From Anolis carolinensis (lineage: Eukaryota), in the NCBI RefSeq assembly GCF_035594765.1, contig NC_085842.1, positions 146,271,036-146,335,035 of the forward strand: DNA of 64,000 nt. Direction: 5' to 3'. Under the pieces are notes generated by a model. The model saw only the letters and a list, made by a program, of their open reading frames with translations, had not been told where the DNA came from and made no database searches. Below are positions 4,652-58,388 of the stretch, one piece after another (the first letter of the stretch is position 1; the number at the start of each line of letters is the position of its first letter). A program made the translations under genes and the position numbers.

Positions 4652-4817
4652 TCAGTTGAAGGAACTATGAAGGAGGTGCCTGACACAAGCAAGCTGCATG
4701 CGCTTTTCACAAATGAACATATAGTCAGAACTGCAAGGCTCCTTGCTCCGTCGGTACATGGATTCTTTGAAGGCAGAGCAGTTTCCTTCACCGTGGTTAT
4801 TTGAGGAAACCCCATTT
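4652..4817 (-). CDS. Gene A exon 6 (CTLD part 3, NGVSSNNHGEGNCSAFKESMYRRSKEPCSSDYMFICEKRMQLACVRHLLHSSFN-stop)
   Basis: C...C..FICEK spacing; T-rich tract with AAG acceptor; phase 2; AATAAA on minus at 4588-4593. Confidence 0.8.
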
Positions 4818-7800
4818 CTTTAGAAAAAAATGGGAAAAATAATTATTTTTTAGAAAAAAATGATTTAAAAAAACACTCAGAAGCACGTAGTATCAGAAAT
4901 CACTGTTGCTAGGAGAATATCACTCAGTCCTTCTTTCCATGAAGAAACAACATTTCTCATTTGCCCCTTCCAGTCTCTGACTCAAATTCACATGACTAAG
5001 TCACACTACACATATGGGACCTAAAGGTCACCACTACACAGTAGCCATATTCTGGGTTTTTGGAGGTGTGTGCATTAATTGTTTCTCTCCTTTGAGAGAG
5101 AGAAAGCAGGATATTAAATACATATAATAAATGAATAAACATGGCTTCCATATGTTATGTTTTAAAATACCAGATAATTTTAATGATTAATTTTAAACTT
5201 CCACTTTATGTCTAATTTTTGTGTGTGCATTTTAATGTGCATTTTTATGGAAATATGTTTTAATATTGATATGTGTATTCTACAAAATATTTTAAATGAT
5301 TGTGTGTTTTGATTGCAATACACCTTTCAAATCCACAATTGTGTGCTTAAATATTAATCCAAAAGAATTCATATCATATTTTATCTGTTATGAAGTTATG
5401 ACATTCTAGTTTATTTTTTATGAATTATAGTAGCAAAAAATCCAACTTTTTTCAAATAAAATATGGGGACACCTATGAATTTGTAACTCTGCCCTTATGC
5501 ATGTACTAAAGGGACAGATTTTGTAGATTTCTTAGTGTCAGATTAATGTCTTAACCTAGGAAATCAATGGTTCCCAACCTGTGGTCCGTGGAGCAGTCCA
5601 AATAACCAACTGAATCTAAAGTTGACAAAAAACTGATTTGTAACCCTTTTGGTACTGATGTTGGAGAGTGGTCCCTGGTCAAGTAGTCCCTGGCCAAAAA
5701 GATGCATGATATAAACTGCATATATAAGTTCATTTGGATGTTTGACTTGGTATTTTATGATCTCTATGTGTATGTGTGTAAATAGTTATGTATATCCCAC
5801 CTTTTTACCTTTTTTTCTTCCTCCCAGGATGGTTACATAACATCAAAACCAGAACAGATAAATAATATATACAAATAGTCATAATAATATACAAAGGTTA
5901 TTTTTAAAGATAATTAAATAATTTTTAGAAACAAAAACATTAAAATACATTAAAAGATATGATATAAAAACAATAGCAACATTTTATTTTTATTTACAAC
6001 ATTTCTACCCCACCGTTTTCACCCTTCCCAAATTCCATTGCAATCCATTCCTAAAAGTAAGTTGGAAAAGAAAGGTTATATCAATATATTGCATTATTTA
6101 CCAACTCAAATCTGTAAAGTAATTTGGTGAACTGCATTGTGACAGATTATATGGAAGTCTGTTCAAAACAGTTACTCACCTGTTAGGAGAAACAGATCCA
6201 TCCATCCCGGGTTTTTTGCCCTCAGTGTCTCTATATCCAATCCAGTATGTGCCTTTTTGAGGGATATTATAAATGAGAAAATCCTAAGAAAAGAAGACAG
6301 GAAAAGAGAATGGCTCCTTGCCTGCTGCTACATGTTCATAGCCTATGAAGCTAAAAAGTTTCAATAACTCACAATGTGAACAGACTTTTTTCAGATGTCG
6401 TGTTGAGGGCATCCCTTGGAGAAAGATGGGGTGGCAAGAAAAGGTTGCCCCAAAAAGTGTGCTGCTGCTGAGTCTGAGAGGGCTTTTAAGCAATTGCTTT
6501 TGGCTGGAATAGGGCCCCTGGATGAAGGACCCAAAATCTGAGAAACTGTCTATTCCTTTCAGTTTGTCCACTACTTCTCATGCATATGTGATTCAGCTGA
6601 ATTGAGTCAAAAACACCATAGAGAAGACAAAGAATTAAGCACAATTGCTAATCCCAATTAAAAGAAGTGTGGTAACTTCACACTTACATAAATATAAGTG
6701 GATTGCTGTAGCTGGCACTAGAAATTAGACTGCGGCCATTGTTTCATTCTAGAACAGGGATGGGAAGTGTGTTCCCTTCCAGATGTTACTGGGCTGCAAA
6801 TCCCTGCAGTCATACCCATCATGCCCAAGGACTAAGAAGTATAGTCTAACAGGGAATTAAATCCAATCTGCAGTAGTTGCCTAGGGGAGACCCAATAAAT
6901 TAACTGCATAAGTCAGCATTTAAGCAAACAACAACAACAACAACAACAACAACTTTATTTCTACCCTGCCACCATCTCCCAAAAGGGACTCGGGACAATA
7001 AATACAGATACATCAATATCAAAAGAAAACATAATTTACATCTAAGCAACTAATGGTATGAGTCTGCTTTAGCAATTGGATTAAGATTTATAACTTCCAG
7101 TCTAGACACAGAAATGTGTGTGTTGCTCTTGGCCAGAAACACATCTGTATGGTTGTTATTTTGGGACCCTTGAAATAATATTTTAATCAGATCATCCTAT
7201 GCAACTGCATTTAGCTGAAATCCTGTATGTTACTCTTTTGCTGAGTTTATGTTGTTCTGAATACTATGGCCCCATCATCACTGCCATTATAATACAGATT
7301 GAACTGCATTATAGAGCCAGCGTAGGTAAGATTAGGTAAAGTTTTTCCCCTGACATTAAGTCCAGTCGTGTCTGACTCTAGGGGTTGGTGCTCATCTCCA
7401 TTTCTAAGCCGAAGAGCCGGTGTTGTCTGTAGACATCTCCAAGGTCATGTGGCGCAGGCTGTTGAGCAACCAGCTGCAACAAATCACTCTGACCAAGAGG
7501 TCATGAGTTCGAGGCCAGCTCGGAGCCCCATGTTTGTCTTGTCTTTGTTCTATGTTAAGGCATTGAATGTTTGCCTTATATGTGTAATGTGATCTGCCCT
7601 GAGTCCCCTTCAGGGTGAGAAGGGCGGAATATAAATACTGTAAATAAATAATAAATAAATGACTGCATGGAGCGCCGTTACCTTCCTGCCGGAGCGGTAC
7701 CTATTGATCTACTCACATTTGTATGTTTTCGAACTGCTAGGTTGGTAGAAGCTGGAACTAACAGCAAGTGCTCACTCCGCTCCCCAGATTCGAACCTGCG

Positions 7801-9749: not shown

Positions 9750-9786
<37 letters not shown>

Positions 9787-11180
9787 CCCCAACCAAACTG
9801 GGATTGGGGTAAGGACAAATTATTTTGCAGGTGTTTATTCATCCTACGTCTGGTGGAAAATTCACAAATAACATTTGTAGGACAAAGGAGTCCTTTATTC
9901 TGCACGAACAACATAAAACACAAACCTTTTCAAAGTAATGCTCTCAAATGAAAGGAAAGAAGGACCTAAAACTTCAAATTTCCACAAAACTAATGACACA
10001 ACTTGCAAAAATACTGCTGCTCTATTTGTTGCCAGGAGGAAGAATAGCAGAAATAGCAAATACAGTCGAGTCTCACTTATCCAACATAAACGGACTGGCA
10101 GAACATTGGATAAGCGAATATGTTGGATAATAAGGAGAGATTAAGGAGAAGCCTATTAAACATCAAATTAGGTTATGATTTTACAAATTAAGCACCAAAA
10201 CATCATGTTATACAACAAATTTGACAGAAAAAGTAGTTCAATATGTCGTAATGCTACGTAGTAATTATTGTATTTACGAATTTAGCACCAAAATATCACA
10301 ATGTGTTGAAAACACTGACTACAAAAATGCGTTGGATAATCCAGAACGTTAGATAAGTGAATGTTGGATAAGTGAAACTCTACTGTAATAGAAATATGTT
10401 TTCCTTGACAATATCTGCTAGCAAACTCTTGAAGGAGAATCTAATCTACTTCTCTGAAAAGCATGGAATAACCTTTAATAAATGTATTTATTAAATGGAT
10501 TTTAGTAGCTGACATACTCAAGAGAACATAGTTGTCCTCTGGTATTTGTTCCATTTACTACAGGAGACACACAGAGAAAGCTCACCTGTTCCTCCTCACT
10601 GCCAATCACTACTAAGTCTGCACCCAGGTCATGGCAGGTGCCCCTGGCATTTGTCCAAGTGTCTTGGTTTTGGTCATAATAGTAGCATTTCTCCTGAAAC
10701 ATGATCCATTCATGGGGGCATGATGGAAAACCTGCAAAACATCAAGCCTTGAAATAATCCAGCCTAGAACAAATGATATATCTTAAATGCTGCAACTTTT
10801 ACAGAAACTTTGGTCAGATACTACCACAGATGTCTGCTCAGAAAATGAACATACATGATCTTCTGGCATATCCACATGGCACTGTGAAACGAACTTTTCA
10901 AAATAAAAATCTCAGAGGCTGTGCTGGTTGGTGGATTCTGAGAACTGCAGTGCAAAAACATCTACAGGTCATCACTGAGGGCCAGGTTTCTCTTTCCCCA
11001 AGGATCTTACATCTCATATGGTCCTGCTAAAATACTCTAAAGCAGGGGTCCCCAAACTAAGGCCCGGGGGCCGGATGCGGCCCATTGAAGCCATTTATTC
11101 GGCCCCCACAGCACAAGGGTAGAAGGGGGTTGGGCTAAATGACCCAAGGGGTCTCTTCCAACCCTCTTTATTATTATTAT

Positions 11181-11238
<58 letters not shown>

Positions 11239-12693
11239 ATTGAGGCTGGGTGGCCATCTTTCAGGGGTGCTTTGCTTGTGCCTTTTGGTGCAGAAAGGCA
11301 GAAGAGGGTTGGACTAAAAGGCCCAAGGGGTCTCTTCCAACCCTCTTTTTCATTATTATTATTATTATTATTAATTATTGCTTGGTAGCCAACTATAGTC
11401 CGGCCCTCCAACAGTCTGAAGGATCGTGAACTGGCCCCCTGTTTAAAAAGTTTGGGGACCCCTGCTCTAAAGTTACCAGAGCCTGTCTGATCTTAGAAGC
11501 TAAGCAGGTTTAGCCCTGGCTAGTATTTGGATGGCAGATGGCCAATGACTGCCAGCTGCTGTAGGCTATGTTTTAGAGGAAGGAATGAGCAAAACCACCA
11601 CTGACTATTCCTTGCCTTAAAAAATGAAATAATTCATGGGGTCACTATAAGTCAACTTGAAGGCACATGCACACACATCCCATATAGCAGAAAGCCAGCA
11701 TGGTGTAGTGGTTTGAGAGCCCTTCCGAGCAGCTGCTTAATCCAAAGTAAAGGATTAAAAATCCTGGTACCTTAAGAAGAGTCCTCACGTGGAGTCATTA
11801 GTCCTGGGAAATGGTCTCATAGCATCCAGAAAGGTTTGGTTAAAGCATATTGAAGGGATCCACAAAAGGTGCAGAACATTCTCTGGAAGTTTTCTTTTAA
11901 TTATTTTCTCAGTGACCCTCTGAGATGCGCTGTACCTCATAAGCATTTTGCCAATTCTTATGAGTGCTAATGCACTGATGCAGATATAATAATAATCTCT
12001 CCTCACCCTCCTGGTGTCTTTAGGTTTGCCCTCTTGAACCCTGTTTCCCTTTGGAGTCACTTCCCTACAATTGTCCGACCTGCTCCTGCAGAATTCTGGA
12101 AAATGTAGTTTAGAGAAGCCGGGGACTCTCTAGCTGATAATTCCAAAGGCTCTGCCCTGAACTACATGTCACAGAATTCTGTAGGAGCAACTCGAACGAT
12201 TGGCAGATGATAGCCTCCATTCTATAACGTTGGTGGGGAAAAGTTCATGGTTCCATGCTACAAAACGCAACTTACATCTGTTAAAGGCTAATATGAGGGC
12301 AGCAATTGCCATGATCAGAGAGAGGAAGGCCAGTCCATAAGCGAAGTTAATGGGAGATCTGCACTGTTCTTTCAATTTGTCAATACCATAGGCAAACAGA
12401 TCTGTAAATAAAGAAAAGTACATAGACAAAGTTGTAGCAAGAGGAGAAGTATTTCAGTTGTTTCAGAAATGCTATACCCAGGGCTGGCCTCCTGTGTGAA
12501 CATGAACAACTTAGGTACTGGCCCTGGACTCTGAGCTGAAAGAGTTGTGGGGGAGAGATAATTACAGAGATGTGATGTTTCTTGTATAGGAATTCTGGGA
12601 CTTGTAGTCCAAAAGATCTAATTTCCCATGCTCTGGCTACAAAATATTGAACCTACTATAATGACAGTTTAAGACTACAATGGCTGCATTTCC

Positions 12694-12748
<55 letters not shown>

Positions 12749-15700
12749 CTTTATTTATATCCCGCCACCATCTCCCAGAGGGACTCGGGGCAGCTCACAA
12801 AACACTCAAGGTGTGATACAAAATACTAAATACAACAAGTTCAGAACAAAACATAGGCAATAAACAGTCAACACAACATCATAAATTCACAGTATGCCCT
12901 GGTAAAAACAATAAAATACAGCAATTGCTGTAGATAAAAGAGCAGCATTCGATCCTAGAATTGTAAAGTGCTAAAAAAAGAGTCAACAGTCCTCATATGT
13001 ATTATAAGACAGTCTAAACATGATCAAAGACTTGTCGGAAAAGCCGGGTCTTTAATGGTGTGCGAAAGGTTTGGAGGGTGGGGCTATCCTGATCTCCCTC
13101 GGGAGGGTATTCCAGAGCCAGGGGCCACAACTGAGAAGGCCCTCTCCCTCGTCCCCACCAACCGCACTTGAGATGGAGGTGTTCGTCCAACCAGGTCTCA
13201 GTGATGCAAGCCAGATTCGCACATTCATCCAGGGTTAAATCCTGGGTGGCAGCTGCTTTACCATTTATGGACCTTGCGTTTAACAGCAGGACTTTAAGCT
13301 CTGTGGGCCTGTCAAGAACAATTACAACCCATATTTTCTGGCCCCAGTCACCTAGAATCATTATCCCAGGATTTCTCTTGTGTTATACCTCCAACCAGTT
13401 CTATACACATGATGGGAACCTATATGTTTCTATCCCACAAACCAGTATTCTTTGCTAGGAACCAAGAATTGAACTCCTCCCCATCACACCTCCCTTCTCT
13501 GACACTGGCTTCTCACTGGCCTCTCACCTTGTTCTATTCTGAGCCCATTCTTGGGTAGCTTCCTCATCAGCATGTCAGGATCAGGGATGTATTCATATTC
13601 CTCCTGAGTCTCTTCACCGCTGACAGACAATGTTCCTAAAGACAGAAGAGGCTTTGCTCAGGTACTTTGGAATCTGCTGAATCCTTTTGGTTGGGTGATC
13701 TTACTATGCAATTCTATCCCTCTAATTCTTATAGAACATTGCTTTCTCAATTATAATGGCTACTCAAATAAAAACATGCCCAAATTTTGGCTATGTACTG
13801 ACACACAAGGATTCTCTCTTCCCCAGTGATGGAAGGTGGCTTCCAAGTCAGTGAGGGTTTTTTTTCCGTGTCAAGAGCGACTTGAGAAACTGCAAGTTGC
13901 TTCTGGTGTGAGAGAATTGGCCATCTGTAACAACATTGCTCAGGGGACACCCGGGACTAAAAGGATATTTCCAAATAGATTCAGCACCTTGAAGCACTTG
14001 TTATAGGCATTAAAATTGGTGTATTGTTCAACTGACAAGGAAGCTGCTGGCCAGCTCTTCTCTCTTTCTGCCTCTTCACGTGTGTATTTGATGAGTATCG
14101 TTTCATGTAGCTACTTGCAAGATAAATTCCATACCACAAATAGCTTTGATATCGTGAAATCGGACCCCCCAAATGATGAATTGTATAAAATTATATAAAA
14201 TGGTAATCGTGGCTCTGCAAAACCCTTTTGTGTAAACTGTTGCTGGAATGTTCTCCGGTTGCACTCAAGACCCTTGCCCTTCATTTCCAAAATCATTTTT
14301 ACAATGAACTGAGAGATTGGGGAGGGGGTGGAATTAGTCAATGGATGTATATCAGAGGGCCCTGGTTCCCTTTCCTGCTCCCATTGATGAGATCGGGGCT
14401 ATCTCTGGCTGCCATGCCTTAAGCCAGTTCTATCTATTGAAATGGTCATTATGTCTAAATATCCATTATGTACACTGGACTAACTCTATTGTGCCAACCA
14501 GAGCTAACCCATTAAACTCATAAATGACTCTTTTGCATATTGTCATATCACCTACCATTCGATCACATCCCTTTCAGAGGCAGACCATCCAATGGACTGA
14601 CACCTCAAATGATCAGTTTATTGAATTTCCCGCCACTACAAAGTGCCAACCAGCAAAGACCTCTGATGTAATCTTGAGCCACACAAAACATGGATCCTAG
14701 CTGGAAAGATTTCAACCAATTAGGAGCTGGCACAGGTTTCTTGAAAAGTGGTTAAATGTAATAAAAATACCCTGTATTGACAGTTGCAGCATGTCAGTCA
14801 ATTGCAGTATGTCAGTACCTCTGATGTCCCATCTGTCCAGTGAGAATGCACTCTTTTTTGCCTTCTAACCCATCTTTGTTTAATTTGGACTGGAATAGTT
14901 GGACATGCCAGGCTTCAAAACCTGTAATAGCAGAAATCACTTAACATCTTCTCAAAGGCTGACAGAGTTAGGAATCTGGTAGGAAGCATATGTAGCATCT
15001 AATTTAAAATATAGTAGGACATTCCTATTTTTGTGTGGGGAAAAGTGACAGCCCTGGCCAGTGGACCTAATCCAACACGCCATGTGTGCATCCACACAGA
15101 GATTTCTATTGTTATCTGTTGTCAGTTACCATACCTAACAAACTATTCAAATAGTGGATGTCTCACAGTAAAATGAGATGTGATTTCTGACCTTTCAAGG
15201 TTTTGCACTCCTGCTTTTCAGTTATTGCTCCAGAAGAAACTGGTCAGCTTTAGATCTGGCCTCACTTGCTTCAATTTGGCCTGCTTCATATTTTTAGCTC
15301 TGCACACAACATCCTTTCCAAGTTAGAACTGAACCTGAGAAAGGTCTGTCCCTCCAGGTCAAGAGGCTGCTATGTTGGGTAACTGGCCTGCATAACTGGG
15401 TAAACGAATGCACTCTTCTCAGAAAAATTTGGAGAAGCCACTTAAAATATAAGGCTGGGCTTATAAATAGGGAAGACTGAAGCCTTCCATTACTCTACTT
15501 TACTAGTAAGTTACCACTTGAATCTGCCAGATATCCTATGAGAAAGATTTCCAAAGTCATTTGAGTAAAGAATATGCTTTGAGAAGCACACCCTGTGAAC
15601 ATGTCAGCACGAGCAACAGCACTGATAAAATGTGATTTCATCTTGTGACACCAACAGCATAATCTGGGGTGGAAAGACATAGGACTGCAATTAGGAAAAT

Positions 15701-15917
15701 GAAGCTAATACCAAGTACAATGCCTACACTGTCCAAGACATTGAATTTCGGTAGAGCTAAAGCAACTCTTTGGAAAATCCCCTTTCTTTCCCTCTCCGTG
15801 ACCCTCTATTTTATGTTTACCTGTTTTTCTGAGTTCTGAGCAAGCCTCTGAGGTGTGGGACAATTCTTCCAAATTTTTTCCCCTGTGATAGTCTTCATTC
15901 TGGTAGTCATCACCCAT
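4652..15917 (-). CDS. Gene A: type II transmembrane C-type lectin-like receptor lacking sugar-binding motifs (CLEC17A/CD209-family-derived), 6 coding exons, 248 aa
   Basis: Exons 15917-15821, 13635-13528, 12401-12276 (TM), 10731-10586, 6283-6180 and 4817-4652. All introns are GT-AG with phases 1,1,1,0,2, the classic lectin pattern. The 747-nt join is open. CTLD motifs: CPHEW..FQEKCYYY..W..A...C, YWIGY, C..DYMFICEK. Confidence 0.85.
6180..6283 (-). CDS. Gene A exon 5 (CTLD part 2, DFLIYNIPQKGTYWIGYRDTEGKKPGMDGSVSPN)
   Basis: WIG and DGS motifs; strong acceptor and CAG|GTGAGT donor; phase 0-2. Confidence 0.88.
7324..7860 (-). mobile_element. Sauria SINE interrupted by a nested SINE
   Basis: tRNA head at 7860, central aacctagcagttcgaaa domain, BovB-like tail ending in (acctt)-type repeats. 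Confidence 0.9.
7448..7660 (+). mobile_element. Anolis SINE2-like copy nested inside the Sauria SINE
   Basis: Closely similar to 351-578. Confidence 0.88.
8093..9034 (+). mobile_element. Putative solo ERV-type LTR
   Basis: Starts TGAAA, ends TTTCA; CCAAT (8759), TATAAAA (8801) and ATTAAA (8888) occur in LTR order. No TSD found. Confidence 0.45.
9751..9783. repeat. (TG)n microsatellite
   Basis: Read directly. Confidence 0.95.
10063..10385. mobile_element. Tc1/mariner (Tigger-type) MITE
   Basis: TIR CAGT(C/A)GAGT(C/T)TCACTTATCCAACAT with TA TSD. Confidence 0.9.
10586..10731 (-). CDS. Gene A exon 4 (CTLD part 1, CFPSCPHEWIMFQEKCYYY...GSEEEQ)
   Basis: Canonical CTLD N-terminal motifs; CAG|GTGAGC donor; phase 1-0. 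Confidence 0.92.
11043..11464. mobile_element. hAT non-autonomous element (OposCharlie1/Charlie-type TIR)
   Basis: TIR CAGGGGTCCCCAAACT / AGTTTGGGGACCCCTG; perfect 8-bp TSD CTCTAAAG. Confidence 0.93.
11473..11666 (+). mobile_element. Degenerate 5S rRNA-derived SINE with RTE-type tail
   Basis: gtctgatcttagaagctaagcagg..ctggctagtatttggatgg..gctgtaggc resembles 5S boxes A/C. A second degenerate copy lies on minus at about 51750-51895. Confidence 0.7.
12276..12401 (-). CDS. Gene A exon 3 (transmembrane, ...PINFAYGLAFLSLIMAIAALILAFNR)
   Basis: ttctttatttacAG acceptor, GTAAGT donor, 126 nt, hydrophobic helix. Confidence 0.85.
12693..13340 (-). mobile_element. Internally deleted L2 LINE (endonuclease start fused to the 3' end)
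   Basis: LLLNARSINGK...ACITETWLDE (APE motifs) joins near 13181 to the L2 ORF2 end, 3' UTR and (tta)n tail. Confidence 0.75.
13528..13635 (-). CDS. Gene A exon 2 (cytoplasmic, GTLSVSGEETQEEYEYIPDPDMLMRKLPKNGLRIEQ)
   Basis: ctcttctgtctttAG acceptor, AAG|GTGAGA donor, 108 nt, phase 1-1, open. Confidence 0.75.
14155..14917 (+). mobile_element. Putative solo LTR related to 8093-9034
   Basis: Starts TGAAATCGGACCCCCCAAA; shares CATGGATCCTAGCT...CCAATYAGGAG with the first copy. No TSD found. Confidence 0.4.
15821..15917 (-). CDS. Gene A exon 1 (cytoplasmic, MGDDYQNEDYHRGKNLEELSHTSEACSELRKT)
   Basis: ATG at 15917; donor CAG|GTAAAC; phase 1 fits exon 2. Confidence 0.7.
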
Positions 15918-18435: not shown

Positions 18436-18574
18436 TTAGCATTTCCAGGCCTTTTCACAAATCCAGCCATCAGCATTGCTTCCACACTCACGATCATCCC
18501 ACCTGCCCGAAGTGGTCATCACGACACAATCCTGCCCATGGCCATAGTTGTTGGGCTGCCGTGGATTCCAATAG
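18436..18574 (-). CDS. Gene B exon 9 (CTLD part 3, YWNPRQPNNYGHGQDCVVMTTSGRWDDRECGSNADGWICEKAWKC-stop)
   Basis: Terminal CTLD motifs; TAA at 18438-18436. Confidence 0.93.
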
Positions 18575-21500
18575 CTGCAGATGGAAATTCAGGAAATGAA
18601 TGCACGGTAGTCAATGAAGCATAGTAGGATAGGTTTTGTTTGCACAGTTGACTATAGGAGTACAGAAATGTGACCTCTATGTTGTATGTAGCCCTCAAGG
18701 CCATTTCTGAGGTTGTAAAACTACCTGTCACTTGCTCCCCAGATATTTTTGATGAACAACACTAAAAATGACCTCATAACTCTGAAGGGGCTTGGGAAGC
18801 AAATTATCAAATTCAAGAGAGAAGTCCTTCAAATTAGGAACTGAACCAGAAGAAATGGACATGTCCAGTTTTGATTTTTTTTTTAAGGTAACAAATTCAC
18901 CCTAGAAATGTCCACCAAGATGATGGGAGATACCATGTAAAACAGTGGTTCTCAACCTGTGTTTTGACCTAATCTATGTGTGTTTCAAAATCAGTGAATA
19001 AATCAATGATTCCCTTCGGGTGAGAAGGGTGGGATATAAATGTTGTAAATAAATAAATAAATAAATAAATTAGCAATGGGGACTTTAAAAAGTGGAATAT
19101 TTAAGATGTTACAAAAATGAATGCAAACCATTTTTAAAATAAAGAATTCCAAATGAGTATAACTCTAAATGGAATTTATGTCATAGTGATATGAAAATAA
19201 GCAAGACTCCCTCATGTGCATGATTAGACTAATATTCATGTACCTCCTGATAAAAATGAGGAGAGATCTTTTTGTCAGAAGAGGGCAAATTTTTCTCTTT
19301 TTTTCTTGAAGCACATTGCATTTAAAATGTGAAAATGAAAAACATATACATGGGTGCACCTCTTGCACCTCAATTTTACACTGCAGCTAAGATCTCTCAA
19401 GAGGTTGAAGTACATTTAGAGTACAGCTCTATCATATTAAGAGAACCAGAGAGAGAGGGGGGGGGGGGAGAGAATAAATGAGGAGCATTTATCAGCCTGC
19501 CAGATCACTAACCTCTATCATTTCATCTGAGCTTCAGAAAAATAGAAGCTACAAAACATAAATGGTTAATCTTGCTGCACTTTAACCTGGGATAAATCTA
19601 CAGACCAGCTGAAAGTGATATATTGTTTATTTTATCTCTTAGTTATATCTTCTTTTTGAAACCTAAGTATTCTTCATAATTCTTCAACAATATGGGTTCT
19701 CTGCCTGAGGGTTTTGTTTTCAATTTGAAAGGGTTTTTACTTTTAAAAGGATAGAAGAACAGACTGCATGTAACTAGACTTACGTATATGATGCTGGACT
19801 GCGGTCCACCCATACAAATGTATTCTCTGTATTTATATCACTGAGACCAATCCACAAGACATTATTTTTTGAGTGAGATGTGAGAAAGCGCTGAAACAGA
19901 AACCATATTTAATTATTTGAGCTGGACAGATAACTAAATAACCTTTTATGACTAGCACCGTGTCATCTTAGACTCAGTGCCAGGCACACAATTGCATACT
20001 CACAAGTTCTATTCATCCAGGTAAGAGGCATGTTTACAATCCCTGGCAGCTCTCACTGAAAGTATTCAAATGTCAGTTATAAGGACTTGGTGAACCTAAG
20101 ACATGACTTTGAATAGAACAGTTCTAGTCCATGTGATAGACAAAATTGTGGGGGATGAATTCATCAAAAGTTATTAGATAAACATACACTATCTATGTTC
20201 AGAAGCAAGATACATTTTTCAAAATGTATTTATTTAGAGTATTTATACCCTGTTCTTTAGCCAAAAAGGCTTGTAGGACAGTTTACAAATCATTAAATTT
20301 GTCAAATTCAAAATGTAAATGAGACACAACACACAAGGAAAATAGGGTGGCAGTGCAGGAAGGGATTAAGACCAGCAATTGCTGATTGCTTTTCTTTCAA
20401 ATCAGGGCAGTTCAAGGCAGCCCTTTAACCTGGGAGCAACAGGGTTTGTTAAATGTGAATGCCCCCGAGTCACAGTCCACCCCCACTTCTCCTACATGCC
20501 AGGAGAGCTCTAGCAGCAGTCTAATGGCAGCCAGGTCAATTATTTTATTTTTTAAAAAGATTTTAAAAGGGGTTTTGGGAGGAGCTGGGGGCTATCTCAG
20601 ATTTGTTGGGCTCAAGCAGCCCCAGAAACCCAAGACAGATATGTAGATGAGCACTGGAAGTTACATGGCACAATCCTCGGTCCCATCTACACAGCGCCTG
20701 CAGCTGCAAAGTCCTAAGTCTACTGAAAGATCGACGTATTTCCAGCAGACAAATTAATTCAGCACAAAGCAGGGTTTTTCTGATTTGTGTCGAAAACATT
20801 TGTTTTTCCCTGAAGCATCATTTGGACGCCCCAAGGGAAAATGCAGGAGGGTGTGCATTATATGTGATGTCCGGATGCGCCCTCAGAAAGTAAAGCAATG
20901 GCAATTGCAACATGGAAGGAAAGCTTCTTGTCAATGGAGCAGTGCCTGGTTACTCTTGTCCTCCTCAGAGGCCACAGCAGCAGCAGCAGGTGGAGCTCAG
21001 TTTATGAACTAAGGCCGGATCTACACTGCCCTATATCCCAGGATCTCATCTCATATTGTCTGTTTATTCCAGATTATCTGATAGTATAGACTCATAAAAT
21101 GCAGTTCAATGCAGTTACACTGCATTATGAAATTGTATTATATGGACAGTGTAGATGGGGCCTGCGTTGTAGCTGGCATTGTCCTTTTATGACCATCAGT
21201 GACCCAATGTGAGTTTGAAGAGTTTAATCAACAACTGGTTGTTTCTTCAAATACAAGAAAAGATGGCTGAAAAAGATGGTTGACATTACCAACAATATTC
21301 ACCACTTACCTGATAGTTTTGTACACAACCACCTCAACAAAAAATCAGTATTCTTCAAATGCTGGATGTAGTTCTGAGTACCCAAGAATTATAATGTTTT
21401 GCCATGCAAGTGGCACCTTATGGGAAGATATTGTGGACTTGATAAATAGCAGATCATCACGAGGGAGTCATGCCTTACCTGCTCTTCATAATCATCAATG

Positions 21501-45130: not shown

Positions 45131-45150
45131 AGGCGGGCCCCTATATTAAT
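45131..45150 (+). promoter_or_regulatory. Gene C putative core promoter (GC-box-like AGGCGGG plus TATATTAA)
   Basis: Lies about 40-55 nt upstream of the predicted ATG; motif match only. Confidence 0.35.
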
Positions 45151-45186
45151 CAGTCCAAAGCAGCTCACTTTCTTAAGTGTAGACCC

Positions 45187-45289
45187 ATGTATGATGACAC
45201 AGAAGCACCAAGTGGAGAAGAGGGTCTCCCACAATGGAGTTGCCGCCCCCTCCCTGCTGAGCCCACAGAGAAGACAGAACATGTGGAAG
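45187..45289 (+). CDS. Gene C putative exon 1 (MYDDTEAPSGEEGLPQWSCRPLPAEPTEKTEHVE)
   Basis: ATG, open frame, AAG|GTAATT phase-1 donor matching exon 2; GC-box and TATA-like element just upstream. Confidence 0.65.
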
Positions 45290-46205: not shown

Positions 46206-46256
<51 letters not shown>

Positions 46257-47379
46257 TGCACAAACTGTTTGAGTCAAAGGGGAGGGGAGGGGAGAAAGGA
46301 GATATATTTCATTTCCTCTTTGTTTGTATGGCTCTCTTTCAAACCCACACAATTTCCTGAACTTGCAGAGGAAAGAAAATCTAAACTAGGGATATTCCTT
46401 TCCCTCCTTCAACTGCCTGGTCAACTTGAGTGGGTTTTCTTTTTAGTGGGGAAGAAGCAATATCTATTCCTCTCCTCCCACATGTTTACAAAAGAAAATA
46501 TAGCCTACTTTTTTCAAAAGTTAGCAACAGAAGCTATTTTTTATTTCTAAGGAAACAAAAATGGGGTGGGTTTTTGGAGGGGAGGACGGAGGTTTTAAAA
46601 AGCCTTTTCTGGCTACTTTTAGAGTTTGAAAAAGAGAGAATTAAAATAGGTGGGAAAGGGGAGCTGAACAGAGGCCCACATTTTGGGAGGGGGGGCTTTG
46701 CTTGCATTTCTTCCTTGGGCAAATGCATGCCCCAAAGCTTGTAAATATGATATAGATTTCCCCCCAGAAATACATCAATTTTATATATGATTTTTTCCCT
46801 CATATGTTTGCAGGTCTTTGCAAAACCTATACACATGTATATATATCTAGAGATTTTCATGTACCTGTATATCTGTATCCATATGTATACATTATTTTTA
46901 TATATGAATTTTCTCTCCCATGTTTGCAAGATTTTGCAAATCCTATATAGATATAATTATCTATATGTAGAGAGAGATGTCTAGATAGATATATATGAAT
47001 ATAGATATATAGGGTTTGCAAATATGACAGTGTGGAAATGCACACACAAATATACACAGACATGTCTAGATAGATATGAATATAGATATACAGGACTTGC
47101 AAATATTGCAGTGGAAATGCACACACCCCTATATTAGACAGATGTCTAGATAGATATAAACAGATATATAGGGCTTCCAAATATTGCGAGAGGGAAATGC
47201 ACATATATAGAGAGATGATTTGCAAATATTTCAGGGGGAAATGCATATGTAAAATTAGTATATATACTTGTAGATCTATATCTAGCTCTGTATTGTTTAT
47301 AAAGGCATTGAATGTTTGCCTGTTACTATGTTGGAAGCATGCTTGTGTCCCCATGGGGAGATAGAGCAAGATACAAGTG

Positions 47380-47422
<43 letters not shown>

Positions 47423-50400: not shown

Positions 50401-53400
50401 CAGATTCTGAGATAAAGGGCAATGTGGACTGAAATAAGATGAGGACAGAGACAGAAAGAGAGAGGAAACAGGAACATTTCAAAGCAGCTTGAATTGTAGG
50501 ACATTGATTATGACTGTCCTTTCAAAATTAAGTTAACTGAAAGGTGTGTGAAAGTTTATCCTTCAATTCGGTTGGATGACTGGGGTGCAATGGAAGACAT
50601 CACTAGTCAAGGGACCTTATCACATTGGGATACCATCCGTTTATATCAGTATACATCCCATATTTTTTAGGACTGGATGCATACTGTATTGAGATGGGAT
50701 GCATACTCTCCTCATCACATCTGATTATTATGATTCTTATTATTTGAAAATACTGCACTTTGACTCATCACACCATGGAAGGCTGGCTCCTCCCAATCCA
50801 TTCAAAACACCCCCTACATCACTGTGACCTTTTAAAAAGTATCATTGTTGATGGGATGCAAACAGATTTTCTTATCGCACACAAAAACAGTGCTTCAACA
50901 ACGGAAGAATAATAAACTTTACTAAATCATAATAAATGTTATTTCTATTTCGCCCTATTTCCCTGAGGGGATTCAGTGGTATTTCAAAAACATGACTGGT
51001 TGTTGTTGAGTTAATGCTTTTATGATTTTCCTATATTTTATGTATTAATTCATTGTAATTGAATGTATCTTATGTTGTTGTATTTTATTGTTGCATTACT
51101 GGGCTTGGTCCTCGTGTAAGCCGCCCTGAGTCCCTTTGGGGAGATGGGGCAGGATTAAAGAATAAAGTTATTATTAGATTTGCATCTGCAAATAATCCAT
51201 TTCTGTGACACTTTGCAGATGGATTCCACTGGAATACTGACAAGATGGGGCAAACATCACATGATGGGACCCATAAGAAATCATTCTCAAACTGTCTCAG
51301 AAACGAGTATTTCCTAATGTGATAAAGTCCAAGACCACACTAACCTCTTCCCTTTTCCTTATTCAGATGAATATGAAAGCTTTGGTGAAGAAAGCAGCTA
51401 TGGCAGGATCCCATTTCCTTCTGAAAGGAAGAAGCCAAATACACAAGCAAAACAACCAAGCCCTAGTATTAACTCTTTTACAGGTATGAAGAGATCAGAC
51501 ACTTTGTTGCTTGAGCACTGCTGCCCCCTACTGCCTGTTCTGCATACAGAAAGGCTACAGTGTATAGCCCTCCAAATCTTGTTGGATGGCAACTCCCAAC
51601 ATCCTTAACCAATGTCTGGATGTCATAGAAGTTGCAAATCAGCATCTGGAGGGTCACACAGCCTACATCCCCATCACATATAGATTAACCCCATACAGAC
51701 TTTTTCCATGGAGTTGTCATCCAACTAGTCACCCATCCATTATGTCAGTCCCATGAATTTCTTATCAAGGTGATTTTGTCAATTCCTTCCTTTGAAATTA
51801 GCCTACAATGCCTGGTATTTGTTGGCATTTTCCCATTCAAGTACTATTATGGCTTGACCCTGCTAAGTTTCCCAGCTCAGAGGGAATTGCATGCCTTTAA
51901 CGTTTAGACCACAACTAATTCAAATATTCTTTCTTCCCCTTGCAGCTGAGCCAGCTTTCACTCCTGCCTTCTGGAAAGGCTTTTGGAAGAGAAATGGCAT
52001 GCTTGTGGTCTTGCCTGTCCTTGTTGGCTGTCTCGTAATTGACATGATTCTTCTCTCACAATGTGAGTATAAGCAACAGGGTTAAGCAATCTGATGGTAC
52101 TTATAATACGTATAATGTGAAAATTTTAATTTTAAGAAAGGAAAGAGTGAGTTAACAGCAACAGAACAATTAAGCAAACCAGAATAAGATGAGTAAGAAC
52201 AAATGAGCTCAGTATTTAACTGTCTTCTCGCCTTTGCCAGTTTGCTCATCTCTAGGTGTCAGAAATCATACTAGAAAGGGGTCTGATCCCTTTGACAGTA
52301 AGGGTATATTTTGATGTTCAAACCCTCCTTGTGACAATTCCATTAGCCACTGTGTTTTTGTTGTGTGCCCTTGAGTCATTTCCAACTTATGTCAGTTCAA
52401 AGGCAGACCCTATCACGGTTGTTGTTGTTGTTGGTGGTGGGTTTTGTTTTTTTGCAAGATTGGTTCAGATGAGGTTTGCCTTTGCATTCCTCTGAGGCTG
52501 AAAGAAGGTGACTTGCCCAAGGACCCAGTGGGTTTCTGTAGCTGCACAAGGATTCAAAACCTGTTCTCCAAAACCATAGTCCAACACTCGAATAACTACA
52601 CCAACATTCCAAAAATGCAAGTGTCCTTTAAAAAATTCTAGAAATGCTCATCTCCATCAGTCTTTTATTTTTCTCTAATGGTCTCTCTCATGTACAACAA
52701 AACCATTCCAAACTACTTTGTACTACAACTGGGATAACTTGTAACATTACATTCTTACTGGGCCAATCCATTTCCTCTCCAGATATTGTAAGAATTATAA
52801 TTAAAGTGAGAGGGGAAGAACAAGCTTGAGGGGCTCACTGCTGTTCAAAAAATCTTGGGGATCTTATCTTGTGAATTGGCTCCACTACAATGCTTCTGGT
52901 AAACAACAGGTCAATCAAAGGTGTTTGCTTCAGGTAACTGACTGAATAAATGGGAGAACTGGGAAACATCACCCCATATTTTAAACTGTTTTAATATTTT
53001 ATTAAATTGGACTCTAGGTATACACTTTTTTATCATGTCAGAAGTAACTTGAGAACATACTACAAGTCACTTCTGGTGTGAGAGAATTGGCCGTCTACAG
53101 AGTTGTTGCCCAGGGGACTCCTGGATGTGATACCATCCTGCTGGGAGGCTTCTCTTATGTCCTTGCAAGCTAGAGCTGACAGACAGGAGCTCACCCCATC
53201 TCACAGATTTAAACAGGCAACCCTCAGGTCAGCCATTCAACCTTTACGTCAACAGTCAAGTCAGCACAAGGGTTTAACCATGGCATAGGTATACACTGAG
53301 GCTTGGTTTTAGGATCTCCCCACCCCCCTCATGGATGCAAATATTCATGAGTGCTCAAATCCAATGGTTTGCAATGGCTTAGTAAAATCGTCATCCTTGT

Positions 53401-56400
53401 ATATAATGGCAAAATCATGGTTTGCTTTTTGGAATTTTAAAAATAATATTTTCAGGCAATGGATTGTTGACTTTGAGGATACAGAATTCATGGATATGAA
53501 GAGCAAACTGAATTGGGGCTTCTCTGTTTCAATTCAGTTTGTGTTGTAATGATAGCTCTCAGCATTTCTGGTAATGAAAATGTTCTCAAAGGAGTAATAG
53601 GATCAAGAGGGTGGTAACATCTGTCCCTTTCCTTTCCAGATGCTGCCATGTTTTCAGAGCTCAGGAAGCTGAATTTCACCCCCACAACTGACATCTGTGA
53701 ACCTTCAACAGCCCCTCTATATATTGAAGAATTAAAGAGCACATTAATAGCAGAGTTCAGAACTTTGGAAAATCATGTTGATGAGAAGTATAAAGCAAGT
53801 GATAGAAAAATGGAAAAGGAAATATCCAGGCTGGAAGAAAAACTGAGTGCAATGGAAAACAGACAAGGTTAAGTATGAGAAAGAACAAGCTGCCCATAGA
53901 CAGAAATGAAAGCAACATTTTTAAGAGCGCAATTTAAAAAAAACAAACAAATCATTTCCCCTTTCAAGTTATTTAGATTTTGTAAAAAAAAGTCAACTTT
54001 TGGGGAAGATAGTGTTTTTAGATTAGATTAAAGCAAACAAGAAAGTGTATTATTCCCCAGAACCAACATATTTGTGTGTACATGTGTTTTTGAATTTTTA
54101 AATGTGAATTTCATGGAATTTCAAAGTGTTGTCCCTAAATGCATTTTAGTAGAAAACTTCAAATAGTCTGTAGAAAGTTAAAAATATTTTCTCCTGCTTA
54201 TTCAAGGCATAACCTAACTTGCTTCTCCCCCCCCCCCCATTTCACATGCGCATATCATTCATTTTGAATTAAAAGTTTGCTGAAATATTGGAACTGGTCT
54301 TCTTTTGGGGGAAATTAGACCTATTCTTTCCATACTGTTTCTGCCTATAGTATTATGTCTTGGCATACCTTAACTGAGGCATACCTGGATAATAACAGAG
54401 TGCGTGGAACATATAAATGCCATTTTCAGGGGGGGAAATGTTTCTGCTATTGTGGGGAACCCGTTCTTTGACCAAGTAAAAGAATGCAAGATATAACATC
54501 GGAACCATACAAAGTGGTGACCCCTGAACCATTGGCAGCTGCTCCCTGAAGTTTCCAGGGAAGAAAGAAACAACTGTACCCAGTCAGACCAAACAGTGCT
54601 CGTCCCCATCATCAGACAGCCTTTTTCATGTCAGGAGCAACTTGAGAAACTGCAAGTCGCTTCTGGTGAGAGAATTGGTTGTCTGCAAGGACATCGTCCA
54701 GATGTTTTGCTGTTTTTATCATCCTTGTGGGAGGTTTCTCTCATGTACCCGCATGGAGCTGGAGCTGATAGAGGGAACTCATCCGTGCTCTCCCCAGGTT
54801 CAGGTCAGCAACACAACCTTCAAATCAGCAGTCCTGTTGGCACAAGGGTTTAACCCACTGCGCCACCAGGAAGCACTGATAAAGATGACTGAGACTCCCT
54901 ATGTTACTTTATCCTCTTTCAGTTGTTTGCCCCACGCCAGAACCTCTGCAATGGGAAGAATTTGGAGACAGTTGCTACTATTTCTCAGATACTACAGAAC
55001 AGTGGGAAAATGCCAAAAAAATATGTGCAGCAGTTAACTCCCATCTGATCATTATTAACAGCAATACAGAGCAGGTAAATGGTGTCTCATGTAGTCATCT
55101 TTTGTTTCTAGTTCTATAAGTTTTTGAAAGAATTCCCGCTCCCTATTCCACCACTTGCCTGCCTACCTGTGCACAGACACCCAAGAAAAGACACCCAAGT
55201 ATTACACTTAATTTGTTCATACCTTAGTTCCATTCGGCTGAAATCATATCCAGCCTTGGAATGCATTCCCACTTTCTGAGTAGACATGCATGGGTTGACA
55301 TTGTAGTTATGTTACATTTATATTTATTTTATTCATTACAATATTTTCACCTCTCTTCTGCCTGCCTGCCTGCCTATCTATCTATCTGTGTCTGTCTGTC
55401 TGTCTGTCTATCTATCTAATTATCATCTATTTATCAAATAGAAAATGAGATACAATTCTGTTAAAATTTTAAGGCTGGGACCCTGCTAGCAATTGCGCTT
55501 TTTCCAAAGCTGCACAGCACTGAAGTGGAAAGTACACAATGGCATCCTTAAAAAACACACAGTTATGGTTCTATGATTCCACTTGAAATGTCTTGGCAAC
55601 GTCCTATGCAATCCCTACATATTGGCATTTCTACTACAGTACTTAGATAATCCTATTACCAAAACCAACAGTTAATATTTTATCCCTATATTCTTACCTT
55701 CTTTTACTTCTAAAGGAAACGGGAGGAAGTGTATCTGCCAGGTTTGCATGCTAGCCACCATCTTTACCCTCCTGTCTATATTTCATCCTCTACTTTCAAC
55801 CAGGTAGCCTGCTAGGAACAGGATAGATTGATCTTGCTTGAGATCACAATTGATTGGCATCAGACAGCTTTTGCAGCTAAGCCTGGACTGCACATGAAAT
55901 CGGTCAGAGGGTGCATCTATATTGTAGAATTAATGAAGTTTGACACTGCTTTAACTATCTTGGCTCAATGCTACAGAACTCTGGGATGTGTAGTTTGGCA
56001 AGTCACAAGCACTTTATAGCAGGGAAAGGTAAAAAACTTGAAAAACTCCCATGCTCCCACAGCACTGAGCGATGGCAGCTAAAGTGATGTCAAACTGCAT
56101 TAATTTTACAGTATAGATGCACCCACATCATATATAGCCTACAGCTATAAAAAGCAATTCATACAGTAAGATGCTAGATTAGGGGGGCTTCTGTTTTCAC
56201 ATGCTTAGCATCTCAGAATGCACAATGTTGTTGTTTTCCTCCTAGAATTTTGTGGTTCAAAAAATAAAGCAAACATCAGTCTGGCTTGGTCTACATGATA
56301 CAGAGGTAGAAGGAACTTGGCGCTGGGTAGATGGATCACTACTTGAACGAAATGGGTATGTGAACCATTCCTTTGTTTTCATCCTAGGGTCCTTTATGAA

Positions 56401-58388
56401 GACAAAGGCAAAGCAGAAGAGGGGCCATGACAATGTTGGGTTAGTGCAGGCATGGGCAAACCTTGGTCTTCCGGGTGTTTTGGACTTCAATCCCCACCAT
56501 TCCTAACAGCCTACCGGCCTGGGTTAGTGGCTAGAAGAACATTGCCTAGAGCAGCGGTTCTCAACCTGTGGGTCCCCAGATGTTTTGGCCTTTAACTCCC
56601 AAAAATCCTAGCAGCTGGTAAAGTCGCTGGGATTTCTGGGAGTTGTAGGCCAAAACACCTGGGGAACCACTGGCATAGAGGGATACTTGGAACTGCCTAA
56701 CCGCAAGTCTCAGCCTTTTTGAAGCACAGAAGCACTTAAAACAAAAATACAAGTTATAGTGTTGTACTTATCAAATCAAAGAATGTGTTGTCGAAGGCTT
56801 TCATGGCCGGGATCCTCTGAGGATGCCTGCCATAGATGTGGGCGAAACGTCAGGAGAGAATACTTCTGGAACATGGCCACACAGCCCGAAAGACATGCAA
56901 CAACCCTGAAATCAAAGAATGTCTAAAATAAGCAATTAATAACTTGAATCAGATTAAAATAAACCTACTAAAAATATCTTCCAAAACCATGTAGCAGCAA
57001 ATACAACTCTGGCCAAATTTCTACTGAACCAAATAAGTATTTCCAAGGAAAAAAAATCTAAAAGCAATTATACTGGGTGTACAGCTCCAGTTACCACTGG
57101 AGGTGTCATCTATACGGTCAGTTCTCCTATGAGGAAAGGTCACAAAGTATTGTTGAAGGCTTTCATGGCCAGAATCACTGGGGTGTTGTCTGGTTTCCGG
57201 GCTGTATGGCCGAGCTCTAGCAGCATTTTTTCCTAACTGTTTGCCTGCTTTTGTGGCTGGCATCTTTGGAGGATCTGGGTCTTCACAAACTCTGGGTCTT
57301 TGTTTGGAACAAATACATTTAAAAGAGAATATGACAGAGACACATGAACTTTGCTTAGTATGGATAAGATGGACAGAGTGTTTTCCTCCTTCCACTTTTA
57401 CAATAGTGGACCCCAGAATCATCAACTGAAGCTGAATGGTGGGAGATTGCGACAGACCAAAACAATAATTCTTCAAACAGGATATAGTAGATGGCAAACA
57501 ATGTAGTGACTATGTCAAAGGCTTTCATGGCTGGAACCGCTGGCTTGCTGTGAGCATTCCAGGCTGTATGGCCATATTCCAGAAGCATTGTTTCCTGACA
57601 TTTCGCCCACATCTATGGCAGGTATCCTCGGAGATTGTAAGGATGCTTGTCATAGATGTGGGTGAAATATCAGGAAACAATGCGTCTGGAATATGACCAT
57701 ACAGCCTAAAAAGCTCACAGCAACCCAATGTATTGACTGATTGAAGATAACTTTCAAAGGGTATTGGATACACTTATGGAGATGATGTCTGCTTTGCTTA
57801 TGACCCAGTGAGGAGTCATTGCCACTACAGGTTAATCCCATGACTATGAGTGAGGAGAATGAAGATACCGGCAATGGTTACTTTGGGGTGCTTATTGTGG
57901 CTGTGGCCTGTAAGGACCTAGGATCTGATCTGCTTCCTAAGTGGCTCCCTACAGCCACCATTTTTGCACTTTTTTCAAGGGAGATGTCAACAATTCTGTA
58001 ATGTGTTATTGAAAATATAGTATATCACTATATTTTGAGTTACCAGTGTGAGTCTTTTCTTGTTTAATTCATACTTTTCCTCAAGTTGTTTGATTAATGC
58101 AGTCCCATGCGTGTCTCTCTGGGGCATGCTATAGTTTGGGTTATGAAAAATGGTTTGATCACAGGCAGTCCATCAATGTAGAAAGTCGTAACTGAATTCA
58201 GGAAGGCTCTTCATGGTGGGATTTCAATGCTCTGTTTTATGCTCCTTTTCAGATATTGGAAGAGTGGTGAACCCAATGATGCTCATGGAGCGGAAGACTG
58301 TGCTGTCCTGTACAAAGAGAAAAACTGGAATGACATTCCATGTGATAAAAATGTCCAGTTTGTGTGTGAGAAAAGTGCCCTCAGTTAA
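45187..58388 (+). CDS. Gene C: type II C-type lectin with EPN/WND mannose/fucose/GlcNAc-type site (CLEC17A/CD209/hepatic-lectin-like), 7 coding exons, 320 aa
   Basis: Exons 45187-45289, 51367-51483, 51946-52062 (TM), 53640-53867 (neck), 54923-55074, 56246-56355 and 58253-58388. All GT-AG, phases 1,1,1,1,0,2, 963 nt open. Exon 1 is the least certain. Confidence 0.87.
45906..47683. mobile_element. Composite non-autonomous Tc1/mariner element (about 1.8 kb) in gene C intron 1
   Basis: TIR CGGTATATACTCGA..ATAAGC / GCTTATACTCAAGTATATACGG with TA TSD. Contains internal ~80-bp tandem repeats, (tta)n tracts and an L2-type tail. Confidence 0.85.
48069..49412 (+). mobile_element. Non-autonomous Helitron in gene C intron 1
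   Basis: Inserted between A and T. 5' (T>C)CTATATATATAAAAGAG; 3' hairpin CCACAGCAATGCGTGG followed by CTAG. Subterminal ~60-70-bp tandem repeats at 48990-49380. Confidence 0.88.
50104..50253. mobile_element. Palindromic MITE (GGCCCCTTCCACACAG-type termini); relatives at 37976-38113 and 50296-50430
   Basis: Inverted termini CCCTTCCACACAGC / GCTGTGTGGAAGGG. Confidence 0.75.
51367..51483 (+). CDS. Gene C exon 2 (cytoplasmic, DEYESFGEESSYGRIPFPSERKKPNTQAKQPSPSINSFT)
   Basis: Long pyrimidine tract with CAG acceptor, CAG|GTATGA donor, 117 nt, phase 1-1. Confidence 0.8.
51946..52062 (+). CDS. Gene C exon 3 (transmembrane, AEPAFTPAFWKGFWKRNGMLVVLPVLVGCLVIDMILLSQ)
   Basis: ttcttccccttgcAG acceptor, GTGAGT donor, phase 1-1. 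Confidence 0.85.
53640..53867 (+). CDS. Gene C exon 4 (coiled-coil neck, 76 codons)
   Basis: Overlaps ORF 53648-53872; heptad-rich; phase 1-1; donor AAG|GTTAAG is suboptimal. Confidence 0.8.
54923..55074 (+). CDS. Gene C exon 5 (CTLD part 1, VVCPTPEPLQWEEFGDSCYYFS...NSNTEQ)
   Basis: 152-nt phase 1-0 exon with canonical motifs. Confidence 0.93.
56246..56355 (+). CDS. Gene C exon 6 (CTLD part 2, NFVVQKIKQTSVWLGLHDTEVEGTWRWVDGSLLERNG)
   Basis: WLGL and EGTWRWVDGS motifs, phase 0-2. Confidence 0.94.
56552..56672. mobile_element. hAT MITE with SPIN-type TIRs
   Basis: Starts CAGCGGTTCTCAACCTGTGGGTC; TSD GCCTAGAG/GCATAGAG. Confidence 0.88.
56787..56908. mobile_element. Short Penelope (Poseidon-type) pseudo-LTR insert with an inverted piece; relatives at 57148-57272 and 57512-57727
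   Basis: 14-bp TSD AAATCAAAGAATGT (56773-56786 / 56909-56922); contains a hammerhead core. Confidence 0.85.
56813..56855 (+). ncRNA. Minimal type I hammerhead ribozyme (palindromic helix III) in a Penelope-derived insert
   Basis: TCCT-CTGAGGA-T-GCCTGC(CATAGAT)GTGGGC-GAA-ACGT-C-AGGA. Confidence 0.8.
58253..58388 (+). CDS. Gene C exon 7 (CTLD part 3, YWKSGEPNDAHGAEDCAVLYKEKNWNDIPCDKNVQFVCEKSALS-stop)
   Basis: EPN, EDC, WND and FVCEK; TAA at 58386-58388. Confidence 0.95.

Follow-up and report, generated by a model that had tools for sequence, protein, structure and literature searches.

When neighbouring C-type lectin genes differ in binding site, stalk and cytoplasmic tail, have they diversified where they stand, or are they older lineages that share a location? 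The question is raised by a 64,000-nucleotide stretch of the Anolis carolinensis genome (RefSeq assembly GCF_035594765.1, contig NC_085842.1, positions 146,271,036 to 146,335,035; henceforth the window, with coordinates counted from its first letter), which holds three genes encoding type II lectin receptors, here called A, B and C. An earlier account made from the letters alone (the sequence-only reading) took them for a locally diversified squamate set, possibly with paired activating (A) and inhibitory or endocytic (C) members. We find instead that A, B and C are probably three old, separate lineages and not a recent lizard expansion. We found no published study of the locus in the open-licence literature, which does not show that none is in print; passages of PMC11269713, PMC9965136 and bioRxiv 2024.05.20.594848 contain nothing on it.

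Genes were sought with a six-frame motif scan of the window, which placed lectin-domain exons at three sites, followed by scans for membrane helices and splice-bounded frames. The assembled models (Table 1) comprise 22 exons, with GT/AG at all 38 internal splice ends and no internal stops: A (minus strand, 15917-4652; 6 exons, 248 amino acids), B (minus strand, 38679-18436; 9 exons, 289 amino acids) and C (plus strand, 45187-58388; 7 exons, 320 amino acids). Each has three lectin-domain exons with phases 1-0-2, a general feature of type II lectin receptors. The group II architecture (i.e., tail, one transmembrane helix, neck and one C-terminal lectin domain in three exons) is complete in B and C; A lacks the neck. 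The sequence-only reading was right about the 22 exons, the phases and the type II topology, as it was about stalk lengths (76 residues in C, 90 in B over four exons of 63+54+63+90 nucleotides, none in A), ligand motifs (EPN/WND in C, QPN/WDD in B, neither in A) and the presence of different cytoplasmic tails (YxN/YxxI motifs in A, none of the scanned motifs in B, motifs resembling an immunoreceptor tyrosine-based inhibitory motif (ITIM) and SH3 ligands in C).

All three genes match annotated A. carolinensis proteins, which argues that the models are not chance assemblies. The public names are automatic and conflicting (CD23-like, CD209-like, CLEC2B-like, ASGR2, uncharacterized), and among the exon queries one of 50 residues matched only the species' own protein. 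XP_008102424 corresponds to B with all 8 joins (an older version is 99% identical over 289 residues), and XP_062825449.1 to A from exon 2 to the stop, i.e., the last four of five joins, while the join of exons 1 and 2 is present in the A. sagrei protein. Each of the six C joins occurs in some public model (exons 1-4 in XP_016846765.2, exons 1-6 in XP_016846765.1, exons 5-7 in UniRef G1KTH1); none of the four retrieved C models has all seven exons, and full-length orthologues of 316-320 residues exist in Pogona, Rhineura, Elgaria and Podarcis. The sequence-only reading had proposed confirming all 22 exons with RNA. Contigs of four runs from four studies, picked with the last exon and 3' untranslated region of B and covering the stretch 4690-24689, do so for part of the locus: all five B joins within that stretch are present in all four runs, showing that these contain RNA although the run search listed none recorded as such, and among the joins listed exons 4 and 5 of A are connected by one contig of run X6 (depth 2.5). 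For the A exon 5-6 join the only sign is the listed bin depth (2.5 x 67 / 667 = 0.25), and the thin cover of most of A in runs chosen for B was not counted as evidence.

The age of the three genes was judged from trees of 55 hand-picked retrieved proteins plus the three window proteins; near-duplicates, most fish sequences and multi-domain proteins were dropped. The searches supplied the best 120 of 401 matches, 29 matches and, for gecko A, 150 rows crowded by multi-domain lectins, of which two were A orthologues. In the domain tree (58 rows), five A proteins (support 100/92), 12 B proteins (100/100) and 13 C proteins with one Varanus sequence (100/99) form separate clades, each ranging from geckos or skinks at one end to snakes or anoles at the other. 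A single A+B+C clade was rejected by the approximately unbiased (AU) test (p-AU 0.0013), and relatives of A and B were found outside squamates. Specifically, B joins four turtle proteins at 99/98 in the domain tree and, in the full-length tree (39 rows), forms a clade at 98/93 with two turtle and five mammalian CLEC4G sequences; A is sister to a lungfish protein in both trees (98/96 domain, 98/92 full length). The phylogeny that the sequence-only reading called for, built with CLEC4G and CLEC17A sequences, recovered three squamate-wide groups; it placed B with CLEC4G and, left free, did not put C in the CLEC17A clade, and the idea of a local squamate diversification is not supported. Each gene likely began with a mannose-type EPN/WND calcium site. 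Pairwise identity between the three lectin domains in the window is 30-34% (37/125, 40/123, 43/127).

B is likely a receptor of the CLEC4G (LSECtin) lineage. Besides the full-length clade, it shares with CLEC4G the type II topology, a short tail, a multi-exon neck whose end aligns and a domain ending in DGWICEK..C; its turtle orthologues are named CLEC4G, and its N-terminal profile scores lemur CLEC4G at 30.8 bits (other CLEC4G sequences 13-17 bits, like CLEC17A). The two differ at the sugar site. In a canonical site, Glu185 and Asn187 serve one sugar hydroxyl and Glu193 and Asn205 the other. These four residues and Asp206 bind calcium and sugar hydroxyls in MBP-A (the mannose-binding protein A of rat), and changing EPN to QPD reverses donor and acceptor and switches mannose to galactose binding (PMC8235521, PMC4681411). 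At these positions CLEC4G has E-N-E-N-D and the window B has Q-N-Q-D-D, with accessory calcium ligands that are absent from the lemur and mouse CLEC4G sequences. LSECtin binds GlcNAc-beta1-2-Man (GlcNAc: N-acetylglucosamine; PMC7135977); B would be an LSECtin-like glycan receptor with a remodelled site and a tail of about 45 residues in which none of the scanned signalling motifs was found. Transcription of B extends through a 3' untranslated region reaching about 17520-17650. The RefSeq model of B opens with an upstream exon at 51349-51414 (-), antisense to C exon 2; by this model the transcripts of B and C would overlap head to head, C exon 1 lying inside the first B intron, but this start, which adds 44 residues, was set aside because orthologues begin at a shared downstream methionine.

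The remodelling of B can be followed across 13 aligned B proteins. Five carry the canonical CLEC4G-type EPN/WND site, as does a Pelodiscus protein; four have E-N-Q-D-D (two A. sagrei records, Sceloporus, Phrynosoma), and the other four each have a state of their own: E-N-Q-E-D in Pantherophis, E-N-E-Q-D in Candoia, Q-D-E-N-D in Euleptes and Q-N-Q-D-D in A. carolinensis (Gln codon CAG at 18558). EPN is thus present in 11 of the 13, and the QPN that the sequence-only reading took for a chemistry of the B paralogue is a species-level change. Among 143 scorable proteins (152 retrieved, <=400 residues), Asp205 co-occurs with Gln193 in all six proteins that carry it, but these six represent one inherited event, to which the snake adds at most a second. 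The site has drifted by Glu193Gln with Asn205Asp in anoles, Sceloporus and Phrynosoma, and then by Glu185Gln in A. carolinensis alone. On the pairing of residues given above, this double exchange leaves the charge unaltered and would be a mirror image of QPD, so that it could favour galactose. A partial parallel exists in TC14, a soluble tunicate lectin unrelated by descent, which binds galactose despite an EPS motif and in which calcium is held by Glu, by an amide and by Asp-Asp on strand beta4, although its amide maps to MBP Asn187 (PMC3293724, PMC8235521). The extra Glu185Gln takes away a charge, and the B site of A. carolinensis is probably weakened and no longer mannose-selective. In the Euleptes orthologue (P0105) the full galactose-type QPD/WND site is seen; two other geckos retain EPN/WND. 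We put forward tentatively, as an idea with more against it than for it, that a squamate CLEC4G-lineage receptor may have switched sugar class more than once (EPN to QPD in Euleptes; the mirror change, Glu193Gln with Asn205Asp/Glu, in iguanians and a colubrid snake), within a cluster that would preserve an ancestral link between CLEC4G-type genes and CLEC17A-NDUFB7.

C, judged by its residues, has a canonical mannose-type site with all five calcium and sugar ligands, as the sequence-only reading held. Among 22 aligned C proteins, EPN is found in 21 and both Glu193 and WND in all. The predicted ligands of C, whose lectin domain sits on a coiled-coil stalk, are mannose, fucose and GlcNAc, bound with calcium. 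Of the 12 full tails, 10 carry an ITIM-like S/IxYxxI motif, 8 an SH3-ligand-like motif and 7 YxN; the 91-residue tail of the window C has the SH3 ligand and lacks YxN (YxN and SH3 ligands as defined in PMC2709368). The inhibitory or endocytic role proposed earlier is plausible, the ITIM-like motif being conserved, but the same tails carry adaptor-type motifs, and inhibitory, endocytic and adaptor-recruiting roles each seem possible for this mixed tail. In CLEC17A (prolectin), YxN and SH3 motifs bind Grb2 and no endocytosis was mediated (PMC2709368); by analogy, C would signal or be internalised through its tyrosine and SH3-ligand motifs. CLEC17A and C have in common the EPN/WND site, NDUFB7 as neighbour and, in the tail, acidic tyrosine motifs alongside proline-rich SH3 ligands. 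C differs in lacking the CLEC17A terminal cysteine, in its conserved ITIM-like YxxI and in running towards NDUFB7, whereas human CLEC17A and NDUFB7 lie head to head. The C exon 4 donor (GTTAAG, 53867, plus strand) is weak; transcripts that read through it run straight into a stop, where the present RefSeq C model also ends, and the product would be a membrane protein lacking the lectin domain. A tandem repeat (46986-47203; period 81, 2.7 copies) lies in the first C intron.

In A, neither EPN nor WND remains, and, as the sequence-only reading held, the motifs indicate that it cannot use the canonical calcium site. The loss is secondary, since gecko orthologues keep EPN with WND or WNA: among five aligned A proteins, Eublepharis has all five ligands and Paroedura four, and Hemicordylus and both anoles lack EPN and WND, which dates the loss of the site, as one event or two, to the time after geckos split off. 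The structure model of A has a core with predicted local distance difference test (pLDDT) values above 90 and a loop (residues 128-149) below 50, and its top fold matches are mincle, CLEC10A and CD23. Between A. carolinensis and A. sagrei the lectin exons are less conserved in A (87/133, 65%) than in C (104/132, 79%) or B (115/132, 87%), the last A exon least (27/53, 51%), while the A tail exons are 82% identical (56/68) and all seven aligned cysteines are kept. Such fast change within a kept fold seems to fit a changing ligand better than decay. An acidic YxN occurs in all five A tails and an acidic YxxI in three. A keeps its fold and cysteines and diverges fast in the former sugar loop; its ligand is most likely a protein or a lipid, bound in the absence of calcium, and it would signal through acidic YxN/YxxI. 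In older RefSeq models of A, exon 5 is followed by an alternative last exon at 39-89 (-), by which the lectin domain would be cut, and one A. sagrei isoform of A lacks the membrane exon.

Several observations weigh against the reading of three old lineages with the affinities given above, beginning with the trees, which contain no CD23, CD209, ASGR, langerin, group V or chicken hepatic lectin sequences. On the lectin domain alone B joins CLEC4G at 88/74, and its domain scores 99-112 bits against mammalian CLEC4G and 110-112 against CLEC17A. The best single-domain solved match of B is CD23 (122.7 bits), which also tops the search with the last exon, although this comparison is one-sided, the solved-structure lists containing no CLEC4G chain. 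Because CD23 outscores the CLEC4G domains, B could correspond, as a pro-orthologue, to several mammalian genes. That B is the orthologue of CD23 (FCER2), or a single sauropsid pro-orthologue of CLEC4G, FCER2 and CD209, we consider rather unlikely: many squamate B proteins have CD23-based names, both proteins have a coiled-coil stalk, and the 63-nucleotide stalk exons of B resemble CD23 repeat exons, but neck end, the lemur score of the N-terminal profile and turtle names point to CLEC4G, and the IgE-binding role of CD23 would be unexpected in a lizard (IgE is mammalian). For C, the link to CLEC17A is absent from the free domain tree, where a turtle-bird-mammal CLEC17A clade (96/90) does not include C; a constrained tree uniting them is as likely and not rejected (p-AU 0.565), the N-terminal C profile scores CLEC17A weakly (6-10 bits), and the window C has no YxN. 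C could instead correspond in lizards to chicken hepatic lectin, a receptor that clears GlcNAc-bearing ligands by endocytosis, and this we hold to be a plausible alternative that falls somewhat short of being favoured. Chicken hepatic lectin is likewise an EPN/WND type II receptor, the Sceloporus and Candoia C proteins are named hepatic lectin-like, as is the frog protein that is the top non-squamate domain match of C (124.3 bits), and the conserved YxxI can act as an endocytosis motif. These names are automatic, however, and the chicken protein was absent from the comparison; its tail is much shorter than that of C, which adjoins NDUFB7 and has a long tail with SH3-ligand motifs like prolectin.

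The placement of A involves long branches, and an A + C clade was not rejected (p-AU 0.075). The best solved-structure match of anole A is an NKG2D construct (77.7 bits, in two stretches; group II domains 55-65 bits), a natural killer (NK)-type, group V protein. A as a group V receptor such as CLEC2 or KLR, sitting in the cluster, would agree with its missing stalk and calcium site, with an A. sagrei model named CLEC2B-like and with a CLEC2F-like cluster ranking third in an Atlas search (0.93); the Atlas searches returned generic lectin clusters only. Gecko A, however, scores group II domains (80-104 bits) above NKG2D (69.7 bits), and the EPN-bearing gecko orthologues join A at 100/92 (domain) and 100/99 (full length), which makes group V descent, judged indirectly here from a tree without group V sequences, very improbable. 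Group V receptors (CD69, CLEC2, dectin-1) share with A the absence of stalk and calcium site and a tail tyrosine motif, and may work alike; as A descends from an EPN-bearing lineage, the likeness is likely convergent. Relaxed selection, with A decaying and the B site (the QPN allele) merely damaged in A. carolinensis, could account for the divergence of A between anoles, its poorly modelled loop, little RNA cover and truncated public models, and for amides at three of five B ligand positions; it is nonetheless improbable, given an A frame open in both anoles and Hemicordylus, the kept cysteines and tail exons, and a B gene spliced in four studies and closely similar to that of A. sagrei. Finally, a squamate-specific triplication into a paired set, with activating A and inhibitory C sharing ligands, draws on the clustering, the identical exon phases, the tail motifs of A and C, the unrejected A + C clade and the lack of non-squamate C orthologues among 29 homologue-search matches. 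Paired receptors have closely similar ectodomains with opposite signalling. A and C, at 32.5% identity (40/123) and with the sugar site of C absent in A, are unlikely to be such a pair; the phases are general to such receptors and the joint clade of all three was rejected, so that this reading is largely refuted for the trio and its full form scarcely credible. We thus retain three old lineages, with fair confidence in the evolutionary picture and lower confidence for each ligand; ligand and signalling assignments rest on motifs.

Where the three lineages lie may bear on their history. NDUFB7 begins 5.2 kb behind C; on the other side, 4.6 kb of the window lie beyond A. A pig gene list has the order ADGRE3, CLEC17A, NDUFB7 (PMC12189728); in human, some 7 Mb separate CLEC17A from the DC-SIGN cluster (PMC2709368). 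The presence of a gene of the CLEC4G lineage no more than 25 kb from NDUFB7 suggests that these two mammalian loci were once one cluster, and the three genes are likely a remnant of an ancestral CLEC4G/CD23/DC-SIGN-plus-CLEC17A cluster beside NDUFB7. B and C lie on contigs of the same size in all six other squamate species with data for both, and A and B in two species; against this reading, same-size contigs show one chromosome, not adjacency. A turtle protein (P0091) with B-type tail and neck on a CLEC17A-type lectin domain, either the outcome of domain shuffling or a gene model that merges adjacent loci, hints at the same CLEC4G/CLEC17A linkage, and may be an annotation chimera. Three bird proteins with CLEC4G- or CD209-like names (P0015, P0024, P0041) group with CLEC17A on the domain (96/90), not in the full-length tree. 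Elsewhere in the window, broken reading frames at 2187-3938 (+) resemble a Tigger/pogo-type DNA transposase, and open stretches at 27575-28558 (+), 31435-31887 (+), 13017-13382 (-) and 59953-60591 (-) are, by eye, putative fragments of long interspersed nuclear element (LINE)- or Penelope-type retroelements.

Table 1 Coding exons of the three lectin genes and other mapped features of the window
Feature	Position	Strand	Basis
C exon 1 (start; proline-rich SH3-ligand-like motif)	45187..45289	+	model, public model; kept in orthologues
C exon 2 (two acidic tyrosine motifs, second ITIM-like)	51367..51483	+	model, public model, motif scan
C exon 3 (transmembrane)	51946..52062	+	model, public model
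C exon 4 (76-residue stalk, 228 nucleotides; weak donor)	53640..53867	+	model, public model
C exon 5 (lectin domain part 1)	54923..55074	+	model, public model
C exon 6 (lectin domain part 2)	56246..56355	+	model, public model
C exon 7 (EPN, Glu193, WND; stop)	58253..58388	+	model, public model, ligand table
B exon 1 (coding from start common to orthologues)	38601..38679	-	model, orthologues, public model
B exon 2 (transmembrane)	32917..33039	-	model, public model
B exon 3 (stalk, 63 nucleotides)	29819..29881	-	model
B exon 4 (stalk, 54 nucleotides)	24633..24686	-	model, RNA contigs
B exon 5 (stalk, 63 nucleotides)	23094..23156	-	model, RNA contigs
B exon 6 (stalk, 90 nucleotides; aligns with CLEC4G neck end)	22837..22926	-	model, RNA contigs, profile comparison
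B exon 7 (lectin domain part 1)	21479..21630	-	model, RNA contigs
B exon 8 (lectin domain part 2)	19784..19890	-	model, RNA contigs
B exon 9, coding part (QPN, Gln at Glu193 position, WDD)	18436..18574	-	model, RNA contigs, ligand table
A exon 1 (start; acidic YxN motif)	15821..15917	-	model; 28/32 identical to A. sagrei
A exon 2 (acidic YxxI motif)	13528..13635	-	model, tail motif scan, A. sagrei comparison
A exon 3 (transmembrane; helix without charged residue)	12276..12401	-	model; contig in run X6 covers
A exon 4 (lectin domain part 1; no stalk)	10586..10731	-	model, X6 contig, public model
A exon 5 (lectin domain part 2)	6180..6283	-	model; spliced to exon 4 in X6
A exon 6 (lectin domain part 3; no EPN/WND; stop)	4652..4817	-	model; XP_062825449.1
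A alternative last coding exon, older RefSeq models	39..89	-	P0089, P0293 map there
NDUFB7 first coding exon (synteny anchor), G+C-rich window end	63600..63711	+	phmmer E 3.5e-17 to NDUFB7 chains

Clustered group II lectins of mammals commonly differ in site and tail (see also PMC4681411), and the contrast between paralogues that first drew attention to the locus is in this respect ordinary. What remains of interest is the natural series of B site variants, the traceable loss of the sugar site in A and the synteny clue. Sorting the genes into three old lineages fixes their annotation and gives a handle on the origin of the mammalian DC-SIGN/CD23/LSECtin cluster and of prolectin. In A, a lectin that once bound sugar would have become, within lizards, a calcium-free receptor of NK-like character. 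The B variants (five ligand states besides the canonical one among 13 proteins) are a ready panel for asking if sugar preference can be reversed through the second donor/acceptor pair; if the tentative switch of sugar class were true, B would include an EPN-bearing vertebrate receptor that binds galactose in a flipped orientation, and would offer a natural test of the rule by which C-type lectin specificity is read.

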